Notes: a model not told the origin generated them from the letters alone. 64,000 nucleotides of DNA from Eledone cirrhosa (GCA_964016885.1 OZ024753.1:33666001-33730000); one strand, 5' to 3'. Positions 494-63,179 are shown, counted from the first letter of the stretch. Program-made: numbers and translations.

Positions 494-550
494 CTGCTAT
501 ATATATTTCAGTGATAGCCATTATTCAACAGCTATGACCTCATCAGGCAG
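494..550 (-). ncRNA. Minimal type I hammerhead ribozyme (PLE pLTR)
   Basis: Minus strand reads ctgc CTGATGA ggt c atagctgtt gaat aatggctat c act GAAA tatata TA gcag. Stems I, II and III pair; the cleavage site is UA. Confidence 0.8.
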
Positions 551-1676
551 TAAGAATTTGAACACAAAAAAACAAGAAACAAAGTAATAGATTTTACCTT
601 GTTAATCCATTGATATGTTCAGATCCAGAGTGTGGTGTTAGTCCTCTAAGGAACTGAAAGCATATGTTTTAGAATGAATGAATTTCAGCACCCAAAGGAC
701 ATGACCTCACCCCGTTGGTCAGATATATTAGCTCCCCAGCTGAAAGTCTATTGAAATTCTTCCATCAGTTCTCCTAGAAACATGTCAACCTTTTACAGTT
801 GCTTTTAATTACATATATATTCTGTTCATAAGACCTACTTTCCTGTAGTGGTAGTGGTGTGAGCAGGTCATTTAGCTGGTCAATTACAATCCCCCTGTTG
901 TGGTGGTATTCAGGTTGTTGAGGAAGAATTAATGTAGGTAAACTGATATGGGTTCCTCTAGTGGTGTTAATGCTTCTCCATATCGTTAGGTCTTATAAGT
1001 GGGAGATGCTATAAATGTGTGTGTTAAAACAAATACATGTTAAAACAAATACTTGTTAAGAATTATAATCTGTATTTTAAACATTTAGTACACACCCGCA
1101 AATGTCCATCGGTGTACACCCATATAAAAATAAACATAAGTGCACCCATATCTACATCCACACATTGACATACATCCGTAGACATATATACACACACACA
1201 CACACACATAAGTACATACACGCAGTTATGTGGATACGCATACATGAACACAAACTCATATGTCCCCTCAGAGGGTGAGGAGAGAAGTAATAGGTGTGTC
1301 TTATTTACTTGTAATAGTTAGTACTGACTCTTGCGTGTCAAAGGGGTCAGGTTTGAGGTAGCATATCCTTCGGAGAATTGGATCACAGGCCGAGGTTGGG
1401 TGGTGAGGCCCGGTGGTCGGAAACGTGGGGTGCCTGGTTGCACACAGGGTAGGACTCTGCCGACGTATATCAGTTCGTTAATTAGCTAGTGTCTGCTAAC
1501 TTGGGTTCGAGTTAAGGAAGTGAGAAAGAAGGGTGGACCACAGCAGTGTTAGGCACGGTGCTAGCTACTAGATAAGTATGGTTCAGTGGTGTTAGAAGTG
1601 CTATTCGAGACGGGATGGGAGGGGGGAAAGGTAGGGGGTGAGGTTGGTGCCTTGGGGGCTCAGTGAGATGGGGCTG

Positions 1677-2180
1677 CTATCCACATAGCTTGAGGAAAGT
1701 TCCCATCCTATGGTGTCTACAGGTACCAAAGAAATCGGTGCTAAGGTTGATTAGATTACTCCCACCACTGAGTATCTCCAGTGTCTCATCCAGACAGAGG
1801 TTGAAGATGCCAGATCCCCCTCTGACTGGAGGTACCTCCTTAATCTTGGACCAGACCAAAGAGTATGGGGTCTTGTCCAACTTGAGCTTCCAGATCAGTT
1901 CAGAAAGAGCCATACTTTTTCCTTTTTTCTATTCTCATTGTATAGGTTGGAGTGGTCAATCCTTAAGACTAGTACAGGGTCCCTAGGTTGGTTGGAGTTC
2001 CTAGGGTCAGTCCTGGGCCCACCATTTACCCCATCATGGCTCTGCTGGGTGGCTATAGGATCAGCTGTTGACTTTCCAAACGTCCTAAGTCTATTCCTAT
2101 TGATATTAGCTGTGTTAGTCTACGCTGCGCATGGTGGAGTACAAAGAGCTTCCACCGTGTACCTATTGAAGATTTTGAAA
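1677..2180 (-). pseudogene. Decayed PLE linker plus GIY-YIG endonuclease C-terminus
   Basis: ALSELIWKLK..YSLVWSKIK..PP.RGGSGIFNLCLDETLEIL...NLIN..TDFFGTCRH matches the PLE C-terminal pattern (LSxxIWxLK...CxLCLxEK...LLN..E..CRH). Upstream FKIFNRYTV resembles the KIFNRNTVK linker. Frameshifts and stops are present. Confidence 0.75.
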
Positions 2181-3195
2181 GTCAACAGCTGATCCTATAT
2201 TCACACAGCAGAGACATGATAGGGTAAATGGTGGTCCCAGGACTGACCCGAAGAACTCCAACCAACCTAGGGACCCGTACTAGTCTGGACAAGACCCCAT
2301 ACACTTTGGTCTGATCCAAGATTAGGGAGGTACCTCCAGACGGAGGGGGATCTGGCATCTTCAACCTCTGTCTGGATGAGACACTGGAGATACTCAGTGG
2401 TGGGAGTAATCTAATCAACCTTAGGACCGATTTCTTTGGTACCTGTAGACACCATAGGACGGGAACTTTCCTCAAGCTATGTGGATAGCAGCCCCGTCTC
2501 ACTGAGCCCCCAAGGCACCAACCTCACCCCCTACCCCCCATCCCGTCTCGAATATCACTTCTAACACCACTGAACCATACTTATCTAGTAGCTAGCACCG
2601 TGCCTAACACTGCTGTGGTCCACCCTTCTTTCTCACTTCCTTAACTCGAACCCAAGTTAGCAGACACTAGCTAATTAGCGAAGTGATATACGTCGGCAGA
2701 GTCCTACCCTGTGTGCAACCAGGCACCCCACGTTTCCAACCACCGGGCCTCACCACCCAACCTCGGCCTGTGATCCAATTCTCCGAAGGATATGCTACCT
2801 CAAACCTGACCCCTTTGACACGCAAGAGTCAGTACTATCTATTACAAGTAAATAAGACACACCTATTACTTCTCTCCTCACCCTCTGAGGGGACATATGA
2901 GTTTGTGTTCATGTATGCGTATCCACATAACTGCGTGTATGTACTTGTGTGTGTGTGTGTGTGTGTGTGTGTGTGTGTGTGTGTGTGTGTGTGTGTATAT
3001 ATATGTATACGGATGTATGTCAATGTGTGGATGTAGATATGGGTGCACTTATGTTTATTTTTATATGGGTGTACACCGATGGACATTTGCGGGTGTGTAC
3101 TAAATGTTTAAAATACAGATTATAATTCTTAACAAGTATTTGTTTTAATATGTATTTGTTTTAACACACACATTTATCGCATCTCCCACTTATAA

Positions 3196-3594
3196 GACCT
3201 AACGATATGGAGAAGCATTAACACCACTAGAGGAACCCATATCAGTTTACCCACATTAATTCTTCCTCAACAAGCTGAATACCACCACAACAGGGGGATT
3301 GTAATTGACCAGCTAAATGACCTGCTCACACCACTACCACTACAGGAAAGTAGGTCTAATGAACAGAATATATATGTAATTAAAAGCAACTGTAAAAGGT
3401 TGACATGTTTCTAGGAGAACTGATGGAAGAATTTCAATAGACTTTCAGCTGGGGAACTAATATATCTGACCAACGGGGTGAGGTCATGTCCTTTGGGTGC
3501 TGAAATTCATTCATTCTAAAACATATGATTTCAGTTCCTTAGAGGACTAACACCACACTCTGTATCTCAACATATCAATGGTTTAACAAGGTAA
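3196..3594 (+). pseudogene. Decayed unknown ORF in the PLE, upstream of the hammerhead
   Basis: About 133 codons in one frame with 4 internal stops. The last 31 codons align without gaps to 37211-37303, with several synonymous third-position changes. Confidence 0.4.
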
Positions 3595-3616
3595 AATCTA
3601 TTACATTATGTTTTCC

Positions 3617-60440: not shown

Positions 60441-60645
60441 TAGGAGAAAGTATGACCCCGACGGCAGAGCTCAAGCCGTTTCGACGGCTACTTCTGGACT
60501 AAAGTCACTTTAGTCCAGAAATAGCCGTCGAAACGGCTTGAGCTTTGCCGTAGGGGGTCATACTTTCTCCTATTACCGACTCTACTACCCTAAGTATTGA
60601 GTTCTCTGGTGCGTTATGGTCCATCTGGTTCCTTACCATAACTCC
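60441..60645 (-). mobile_element. Hairpin-ended non-autonomous element (132-bp palindrome plus unique arm); related copy at 61981-62140 (+)
   Basis: 60441-60572 is a near-perfect palindrome centred on 60506. 60573-60640 reverse-complements to tggaccataacgcaccaga..actc.atacttag.gtagtagagt.ggtaatagga, as at 61995-62050. Confidence 0.75.
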
Positions 60646-60964
60646 CTTGTATATATATATATATATATACAACGGAGTTGTGGTATGTTTCCGTGTGTGT
60701 GTGTGTATATGTATATATATATATATATACACACACACACGGAAACATATACATATATATAGACAGACATATATACATAATTTTAATATTCTGATATTTT
60801 TTTAAAAAATAGAAATAAGTCTATATAATCCCTAGCAAGATTAATATATATATATATATATATACGCATATATAAATGTACATATATGTGAGTGTGTGTG
60901 TGGATGAAGTTTGAAATGAATCGTGAAATAAATGACAGATCACTTTAATATTTCATTGTTTTCC

Positions 60965-61298
60965 TTTATACACACACACACATATATATATATATATATA
61001 TATATATATATATATATATATATATATATATATATATATATATATATAATAATCTACATATATGTATATAATCTACATATATGTATATAATCTACATATA
61101 CATATATATATATATATATATATATACATATATATATATAATATACATATATATATATAATATACATATATATATATAATATACATATATATATATAATA
61201 TACATATATATAATATAATATACATATATAATATACATATATATATAATATACATATATATATATAATATACATATATAATATACATATATATATATA
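60965..61298. repeat. (TA)n and (TATAATATACATA)n satellite
   Basis: Seen directly. Confidence 0.9.
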
Positions 61299-63107
61299 TT
61301 CTATTGTCAAATTTTATCTTTCCAGTGCGGCGCCTTTCTGTTGGCCTCAACTAAGGCGTAACAATGTAGATAATAATTACTTGCAGGCAGTTAGATACAG
61401 GAATAATGAAAGAATCCTATCTTCTCCGTCTTAAATGTGTTTCTGTGAGTGATCTCGTGTTTTTTCTTCTTTTTGTCAGACTTGTTTTACCTTTCTTACT
61501 TACACAAATAACACCGACAGCAAGATGGATAATTTGATAGAGATCTTTGAATGTTTGCAGGGAAGAGTGAGAGTCAGACTAAGGTGAATGAATATAAATT
61601 AATGCTGTTTTTTGTTGAATATTTTAATATTGCTAAGTCAAGTTCTAAATTCGACATCGGTTTTACTACGTTGTGAAATTATAACGACACAATAATCTAA
61701 GAGAGACGTATTTGAAATAAATACTTAAAGAAATACATCTGTAACATAAGAAGTATATCTGCATCATAAGAGAAAGATAAAGAACAGTGACTGATATTTT
61801 ATATATAGAACTGTTATGCTGAATGTTCTACTCACAAGTATCTGCTATGTGTCGACAAACATTTTACATTATTTCTATACATCTTCAGTCTTCAGCTCCA
61901 TGTAGTCATTTTCTGTATATATATATATATATATATATATATATATATATATATATATATATATATAACGAATGAAGCGTTATAACGAATCAGGTGGACC
62001 ATAACGCACCAGAATACTCGATACTTAGAGTAGTAGAGTGGGTAATAGGAAAAGGGTCAACCGGCCGGGTCTGAACTCAGACCAAGCTGTCGAAAGGACC
62101 GCAGCTCAGCCGTCGGGGTGGGGTCCTGACTCTTTTCATATATATATATATATATATATAATGCAAATAAAACCCTGTATTGCCATAAAACGTAAACAAA
62201 ACACACTCAGAATATCAAAGCCAATATAATTGATCCCAAGCAAGATGACATCAGAAAATAAAACCCAGCCTCGAATGCAAACCACATAAACTAAGCACCT
62301 TAACTCCTGCTCAGACACACCATCCACATTACCGTTAAACTAACCACCGACTACATCTCTGTATTCCGTAAAATGATCACAGACCCACACCAGCCACGGG
62401 TGTCGGAGCGACAGAAGATATCAAGCTGCGGCTATCATATTACGTAGTTTCTGTAAAATAAAAACTAATATCTGCAGCGACTATGGCCCTATTACGTAAT
62501 TGGGGGGGTTGACGTGCCACCGTGTACCACGGCGTTTGCATCAGAAAAGCCATAGACCATAAAACACACATAAGAGAATAATTATTTTGAAAATAAATGA
62601 AAATTACTCAAACAGATAAATACGAGAGAGAGAGTGAGTGAGTGAGTGAGTGAGTGAGTGAGTGAGTGAGTGAGTGAGTGTGTGTGTGTGTGTGTGTTTG
62701 ATATCTATGCACATATAAACATACTTATATATCCATTTACTTTTATATATCTGCTTATATATACACACCCGCATACCTACATCCACAGAATTATGCATTC
62801 ACTCATACTGTGTAGAGAAATAGATTAAAATATGTGTACTTTATATATTATATATATACATACATACGCATGCACGCACACACACACAGACAGACAGACA
62901 CACGCACACACACACACACACATCATTAAATATATATATATATATATATATATATATATATATATATATATAACCAAAAGTTAAACAAGGTTCATTGATT
63001 AATCAATGAATATAGTTTTACAATAGATTAGAAGCACTCAACAGTAGTTGACTGCCAAGGCTGGAATTGAACCATCAGCACAGTTGACGTATGTCATACA
63101 TCAATTT

Positions 63108-63179
63108 ATATATTTTATCTGATGAGGACGTACTGAAAAAACAGCACAGTACCTCCGAAATATATATTATAAAATATAT
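63108..63179 (+). ncRNA. Minimal hammerhead ribozyme (best-preserved copy)
   Basis: atatattttat CTGATGA gga c gtactg aaaaaacagca cagtac c tcc GAAA tatata TT ataaaatatat; perfect 11-bp stem I. A KPKLNK-like GIY-YIG end remnant lies upstream near 62972. Confidence 0.85.

Follow-up and report, generated by a model that had tools for sequence, protein, structure and literature searches.

Penelope-like retrotransposons (PLEs) carry hammerhead ribozymes whose role has been called unclear (PMC8557442). Canonical metazoan type I hammerheads have a helix II of 4 base pairs (bp), the loop of which contacts helix I, and for the minimal hammerheads of metazoan PLEs a dimeric form and weak cleavage in vitro have been reported (PMC4209133). 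The hammerhead of PAc, a Poseidon element of the anole, cuts only when the PLE protein is added; reverse transcription of this element starts at two downstream sites, and insertion takes place without need of cutting (PMC11167929). Here and below, statements on cited work refer to the parts of each source that were available. We analyzed a stretch of 64,000 nucleotides (nt) of Eledone cirrhosa DNA (GCA_964016885.1, OZ024753.1:33666001-33730000; hereafter the window), in which a first-pass annotation had recognized four minimal hammerheads with an invariant C-C mismatch in stem II. We find an unpaired cytosine on the 5' side of stem II in every family examined among the hammerheads of a group of Hydra-clade PLEs in this genome, and we tentatively propose that it is read by the protein of the element.

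The unpaired cytosine of stem II

The core pattern CTGANGA-N{6,36}-GAAATATRTATH matches the window at exactly four sites (mean 0.00 in 100 dinucleotide shuffles; Table 1), in agreement with the four hammerheads annotated earlier. All of them satisfy the type I layout, with the core CUGANGA, GAAA and UH, three helices and an open stem I. In each copy three core-side pairs are followed by a C opposite a C and then by a further helix, and the flanking pairs of stem II that had been quoted are present as written. The copies are the truncated 3' ends of three lineages, A (copies 1 and 2), B (copy 3) and C (copy 4). Copies 1 and 2, previously taken as one family, do share lineage A but belong to different subfamilies (74% over 90 nt upstream). 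Stem I of copy 2 has a U-C mismatch, its predicted stem II pair probability is about 0.1 compared with 0.8-1.0 in copies 1, 3 and 4, and this copy is predicted to misfold. A fifth hammerhead, at 3834-3872(+) in the inverted arm of the first element, ends after the first GA of GAAA.

Genome-wide (3.0 Gb), 81,255 pattern matches were found in E. cirrhosa, 71,948 of them with C at both stem II positions, compared with 155 and 3, respectively, for the reversed-pattern controls; all these counts are lower bounds. The C-C mismatch is enriched genome-wide. Among 208 distinct copies, a sample deliberately enriched for variants, ten families were separated by eye and simple rules (family I consists of two copies that were binned with G and have TGT/ATT ends). 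Stem II pairs 2, 3, 5, 6 and 7 are formed in 95-99% of the 208 copies, compared with 3% for pair 4. On the 5' side of this pair, the base (position 10.4) is C in the majority of each of the ten families. Its partner is C in families A, B, C, E, G, H and I, A in C' and F, and U in D; no expanded family among those seen has G as the partner. Because the C-A and C-U families have expanded, the conserved feature is, as judged from these sequences, the unpaired 5' C and not a C-C pair. The earlier statement that the C-C mismatch never changes is accurate for the four window copies and fails genome-wide, and the proposal that it is a selected feature carries over to the 5' C alone.

The context of C10.4 was analyzed in 17 hand-picked representatives. 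It is the only invariant column of stem II, and the only one outside the core and stem III. Pair 4 is unpaired in all 17, while the pair below it is formed in all 17 as A-U, U-A or G-C. In every representative stem II follows A9 directly, without an extra base, and is interrupted at pair 4, so that helix II is not continuous. Beyond the mismatch, stem II runs on for 4-12 more pairs. Stems I and II covary across the representatives, and pairs 10.1-10.3 and 10.5-10.8 do so while C10.4 stays unpaired, as had been suspected from the window copies. The covariation score is 0.606, compared with 0.268 in shuffles, and none of 500 shuffles reaches it, a control that is inflated by the relatedness of the copies.

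The base is mutable in decaying copies. The 5' C has been lost in 2,368 copies, with 65 T, 19 G and 16 A among the first 100 listed (by eye), and the losses are spread across families in the way that decay would produce. At the 3' partner, 4,116 copies have a base other than C. Among the first 100 of these listed, 62 come from two C-A families (53 from a short-hairpin C-A subfamily and 9, with A, from family F) and the other 38, with 20 T, 9 A and 9 G, are scattered, so that by eye G accounts for only 9 of the 100. Scaled up, scattered loss of the 3' C amounts to about 2.5%, near the rate at which the catalytic G12 is lost (1,422 of 61,699 copies, 2.3%). For both C of lineage B, no variant at a frequency of at least 5% was found in the four public contigs, of unrecorded kind, that carry this lineage; no RNA record was listed among the carriers. 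We consider it very probable that the unpaired C is under selection.

Several variants were seen beside these families. A pattern search with a 10-nt palindrome gave two further C-C families. Families F and E have A-A and U-U, respectively, at stem II pair 1 and keep the register of three pairs and a C (L192-L199, L116, L229, L230). Both arms of some inverted pairs carry the same mismatch change, A-C or C-G (L062, L201, L202), perhaps because single templates with the variant could still be copied, or through homogenisation of the arms. Other hammerheads have stem II regions of 48-52 nt and no C mismatch (L224:1315, L231:4397 and 5305, L236:1787, L240:2171).

Hydra-clade elements carrying the hammerheads

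That the motifs are PLE hammerheads is virtually certain. The elements encode a reverse transcriptase (RT) followed C-terminally by a GIY-YIG endonuclease, both within one open reading frame (ORF), sit in (TA)n and occur as tandem and inverted pairs. Lineage B has an RT-endonuclease frame of 742 amino acids in L053, and family D a frame of 821 codons in L221. Pfam did not recognize the PLE protein, and the RT and endonuclease motifs were read from the alignment instead. They include SDKTNN and RWR or RWT in lineages B and D (RWK in relatives), with DKT instead of DKG. Lineage B has the linker CNCRNKSNC (CxCX5C), CDLC (CxxC) and CRH (CxH), the same motifs are present in A and D, and a CCHH motif is absent. 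Window copies 2-4 are bounded by (TA)n, and the loose ends of public contigs also run on as (TA)n.

The hammerheads are located downstream of the RT-endonuclease frames and, in tandems, just upstream of the next frame, the start codon of which lies about 190-210 nt after the cut site. In the L221 tandem (G000:C2:134082500-134092000) three hammerheads flank two 821-codon frames, and the same location in a pseudo-LTR (LTR, long terminal repeat) is seen at L053, L105 and L203. Stems I and II are predicted to fold in single copies, with a probability of stem III of at most 0.02 in seven of eight folded copies. The 8-nt palindromes ATATATAT, ATATGTAT and ATGCGCAT can pair between two copies, the last being the compensated version of family D. 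Predicted folding thus matches the dimer model (PMC4209133), since no stem III forms in the monomer and the palindromes pair between copies. Element context and folding together bear out the earlier identification of minimal type I hammerheads in PLE pseudo-LTRs with a palindromic stem III. The TATRTA sequence given for stem III holds in the window copies and is not universal, the young family D having TGCGCA, a compensated palindrome.

Family D has C-U at pair 4. Its best 150 matches are 98-100% identical, many 821-codon frames are intact, and some copies form head-to-tail arrays with a unit of about 3.9 kb. The family is young, because its copies are near-identical and many frames are open. 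Identity among the RT cores of A, B and D is 51-53%, that of the A and B endonuclease regions is about 41%, and upstream flanks align only weakly between lineages. In a quick RT tree of 49 rows, in which database relatives with Hydra motifs served as comparison rows, the eight protein-linked rows with the C mismatch are one side of a branch with a support of 95 in the Shimodaira-Hasegawa-like approximate likelihood ratio test (SH-aLRT). In a careful tree of 26 of the 49 rows the same branch has bootstrap 74 / SH-aLRT 94, and B, C, D and G group at 100/99. The trees cover protein-linked families, families E, F, H and I having no linked protein, and the assignment to the Hydra clade is by motifs. 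A single origin of the C mismatch is thus likely, not firm, and the roughly three independent lineages of the first-pass annotation would not be independent origins, one ancestor being most likely.

In L111/L223, a Hydra family that falls outside the C-mismatch group, the hammerhead-like motif is a different one, located at about 930-990 in L111 and upstream of the ORF in L223. The core is CCGAAGA, with C for U4, at both loci, and pair 4 is C-G in L111 (by eye). Protein relatives in databases are 39-48% identical and come without genomic context; the one named close match is from Argonauta hians (39%). Viral contigs contained no protein relative, and none of their 44 pattern matches has both stems. 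A tighter pattern gave two metagenome matches and one prokaryote match, none of which folds as a hammerhead, in collections that hold little animal DNA.

The 3' ends of the elements cluster at two distances beyond the cut site, the hammerhead being about 45-55 nt upstream of the short 3' end and about 135-140 nt upstream of the long one. Of 61 ends in family D, 28 fall at +40 to +49 and a further 21 at +135 to +139; the corresponding figures for lineage B are 20 of 56 ends at +55 to +59 and 19 at +140 to +144. Each cluster is at or just before a conserved hairpin. These twin hairpins, RCTC...(G)TTGAGYGCT (L053:749-771 and 836-861; L221 +51..78 and +141..161 after the cut), are likely the signals at which reverse transcription starts. 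Since most genomic copies run back through the cut site of the ribozyme, the copied RNA would have been uncut, or re-joined at this site. In family D, 204 copies start near the cut site, with break points that are spread, and at one place among 30 loci (L275/L276) a unit starts at the cut and runs into the ORF.

The pieces of these elements in the window are listed in Table 1. The endonuclease remnant of the first element is 72-86% identical to the other 149 among its best 150 genome matches, which include an 801-codon open frame with RT. The short non-coding tandem-repeat layout of non-LTR retrozymes is absent, the window copies being solo or inverted truncations of protein-coding elements.

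Table 1. Hammerheads and associated element pieces in the window. Positions are counted from its first nucleotide; "core" gives the match to the core pattern.
Feature	Position	Strand	Details
Hammerhead copy 1, lineage A	494..550	-	core 498-546; stem I CTGC/GCAG; palindrome ATATATAT; predicted cut between 498 and 497
Stem II of copy 1			3 bp, C536 opposite C513, outer helix
5'-truncated Hydra-clade PLE with copy 1	333..1930	-	endonuclease C-terminal remnant, 3' region of ~1.1 kb, hammerhead, long tail to (TA)n
GIY-YIG endonuclease C-terminus remnant	1677..1928	-	from genome matches
First of two conserved tail hairpin motifs	391..433	-	RCTC...GAGY, downstream of cut; by eye, in copy 1 sequence
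Inverted 5'-truncated arm of copy 1 insertion	2285..3872	+	typical PLE inverted structure
Fifth, cut-off hammerhead	3826..3872	+	5' strand of stem I, core, whole stem II with C-C
Hammerhead copy 2, lineage A, worn	37355..37409	+	core 37360-37404; C37370 opposite C37389; predicted cut after 37404
PLE 3'-end fragment with copy 2	37190..37429	+	~240 bp, between (TA)n runs
Hammerhead copy 3, lineage B	47704..47768	+	core 47712-47760; C47722 opposite C47745; palindrome ATATGTAT; predicted cut after 47760
PLE 3'-end fragment with copy 3	47577..47816	+	~240 bp, in (TA)n; 93-99% identical to lineage-B pseudo-LTRs
Hammerhead copy 4, lineage C	63108..63179	+	core 63119-63168; 11-bp stem I; C63129 opposite C63153; UU cut triplet; predicted cut after 63168
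PLE 3'-end fragment with copy 4	63051..63228	+	

Other features of the window are of different kinds. A fragment of a GIY-YIG endonuclease at 46718-47100(-) has a CCHH pattern by eye and no Pfam match, and likely belongs to another PLE clade. A link between this fragment and copy 3 was rejected, as it lies on the opposite strand and is not among the tblastn matches of the lineage-B protein. At 14767-15477(-), a reading frame matches Pfam ANF_receptor (E 6e-14) and is likely an exon of a receptor gene, the introns of which may harbour these repeats. An unbroken frame of 1153 codons at 55281-58742(+), of the LINE (long interspersed nuclear element) type, has endonuclease, RT and zf-RVT. An open RT frame of another non-LTR element lies at about 42250-43671(+), between long (TA)n/(CATA)n arrays.

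Possible roles of the unpaired cytosine

We tentatively favour the reading that the unpaired C of stem II is a base-specific contact, read by the RT-endonuclease protein of the element itself. The protein is a likely reader because cutting by another PLE hammerhead depends on the protein of its element (PMC11167929). Base identity, instead of mere weakening of the stem, is favoured because U-C, which would be equally weakening, shows no clear expansion: C10.4 lies in a CpG in several families, and no expanded U-C family is evident in the first 100 listed losses. In the mechanism that we envisage, stem III would form only between two hammerheads of one tandem transcript, and the ribozyme would be weak alone and helped by the protein, as in the anole PLE. 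The contact between protein and RNA would include the fixed C, three pairs from the core, and reverse transcription would start downstream of the cut site and read through it. Such a contact could set the timing of cutting. The more specific proposal that recognition of C10.4 by the RT-endonuclease decides when tandem hammerheads cut is doubtful at present. If true, it would couple RNA cutting to reverse transcription starting 45 or 135 nt downstream, and would be a natural case of a hammerhead gated by protein in a sequence-specific way, one that could help to show the purpose of PLE hammerheads.

A number of observations weigh against a protein that reads this base. The avoidance of G as the partner is weak evidence alone, because G would be missed in three changes with a chance of about 0.3, on the assumption that the three alternatives are equally likely (the changes seen at the level of families are A, A and U). 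Seven of the first 100 listed losses of the 5' C are short-hairpin lineage-C copies with U-C, which we read as CpG decay, and which may be a small subfamily. The support for a single origin is only moderate (74/94), and families E, F, H and I lack a protein link. The minimal region bound by the protein of the anole PLE maps mostly downstream, within the first 172 nt of its ORF, and mutation of the hammerhead leaves insertion in vitro unaffected (PMC11167929). The twin hairpins are better candidates than the hammerhead for the start of reverse transcription. Finally, none of 18 mapped ORF-bearing copies has its 5' end at the cut site, and about 14 of 100 rows have 5' ends at -4..0 compared with about 19 at -12..-5. 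With no excess of 5' ends at the cut site, genomic copies thus provide no hint that cutting occurs in vivo.

A tertiary contact or local fold of the RNA alone, with the unpaired C either docked on stem I or bound to a metal ion, is another explanation that we regard as doubtful. It would replace the usual contact between loops 1 and 2, which a long stem II puts out of reach at the usual height. The mismatch at pair 4 is indeed located at the height of the usual loop 2, and the identity of the base is kept. However, stem I offers no invariant base to receive the C, since all four of its pairs examined vary on both sides, and the stem itself differs between lineages, being GC-rich and 4-5 bp long in A and AU-rich and 8-11 bp long in B, C and D. 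Watson-Crick pairing of C10.4 with stem I was rejected for want of an invariant G.

Alternatively, the mismatch could act as a brake that weakens the three core-side pairs, so that cutting is slow and most transcripts stay whole for reverse transcription, a reading that we consider unlikely. In all eight folded copies stem II would gain 5.5-6.7 kcal/mol in stability on closure of the mismatch, and some families have a further mismatch, A-A or U-U, at pair 1. The read-through of genomic copies across the cut site would fit a brake as well, as does the finding that the anole PLE uses mainly uncut RNA as its substrate (PMC11167929). Yet any mismatch would serve this purpose, whereas the 5' base is C throughout, with no clear expansion of U, its most frequent replacement; moreover, the palindromic stem III already limits cutting of the monomer.

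Neutral inheritance of a chance ancestral mismatch that the descendants have not yet lost is already disfavoured and quite improbable. In its favour, all protein-linked families may be one clade, and the shuffle control is inflated by relatedness. Against it, all other stem II positions have changed, mostly with compensation, between lineages at about 50% RT identity, upstream flanks align only weakly from one lineage to another, and dead copies show that the C can mutate (2,368). A structure of the DNA or complementary DNA strand was rejected, as G-U pairs fit the sense RNA strand.

Comparison with described hammerheads and PLEs

The hammerheads described here are real and abundant and likely selected, and they are a variant of a known ribozyme in a known class of elements, the mismatch itself being likely new within the literature compared. 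As both classes are known, the gain is a testable detail, not a new system. One base outside the core stays constant at about 50% RT identity and exists in natural C-C, C-A and C-U versions, which allows a precise mutational test of reading by the protein, and the young family D with its intact frames adds to such a test. The results also suggest that tens of thousands of hammerheads in one genome can escape Rfam models and searches that demand full pairing of stem II. In the comparison with Rfam hammerhead models that the first-pass annotation had proposed, no hammerhead family was among the five matches of copy 1 and the four of copy 3 at E values up to 10. The best 150 of the 433 window matches likewise contain no hammerhead, those listed being simple-repeat microRNA noise and chance matches. 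The failed match lowers the case for membership of an Rfam family only.

A literature search, with the alignments of Lunse 2017 and Arkhipova 2017 outside the comparison, gave no description of the C mismatch. In the available parts of PMC3088659, PMC7229834, PMC6962438, PMC6765202 and bioRxiv 10.64898/2026.07.22.740005, only U-U at the base of stem II was found. The small dimeric PLE hammerhead variants (Lunse, Weinberg, Breaker 2017, RNA Biol 14:1499; cited in PMC6765202) are likewise linked to PLEs and are reported to cleave as dimers.

The metazoan minimal PLE hammerheads (PMC4209133) share with ours the type I layout, the location in pseudo-LTRs, a short palindromic helix III, a larger helix II, and the occurrence of many covarying families per genome, mostly as solo truncated copies. 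Most of them have an extra unpaired base after A9, which is absent here. None of the 56 rows of Fig. S3 of that work has C-C at pair 4; by eye, C-A is present in S. purpuratus 1 and U-U in C. sinensis 2. Nor is pair 4 mismatched in any of the 26 hammerhead rows of File S2 of the Hydra-clade study, which include Hydra-1_oBim and mostly have stems II of 3-8 bp with short loops (PMC8557442). In the two tables compared, C-C is thus not a standard feature of PLE hammerheads, although published search descriptors favour fully paired stems and its absence is partly a matter of method.

The protein and insertion features place our elements with the Hydra-clade PLEs that have a C-terminal endonuclease (PMC8557442), with which they share the RW motif, DKT, the CxCX5C linker, the lack of CCHH, and GIY-YIG at the C-terminus. 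Common to both are also (TA)n targets, inverted 5'-truncated arms and a 3' type I hammerhead with self-complementary stem III. The subgroup found here differs in its RT motif, MGxxDSAQ instead of MGSYDGAE, and in size, with about 3.9 kb for the family D unit and a 3' region of 1.1-1.6 kb, whereas Hydra elements are generally <3 kb, a tendency of the clade and not a defining rule (PMC8557442).

The anole PAc (PMC11167929) belongs to a different clade, and the available part of its description makes no mention of a stem II mismatch. Its hammerhead overlaps the start codon, whereas the ORF follows about 190-210 nt after the cut in E. cirrhosa. The two systems nevertheless have in common a hammerhead at the junction of pseudo-LTR and ORF, two starts of reverse transcription that define the tail, and read-through of the cut site.

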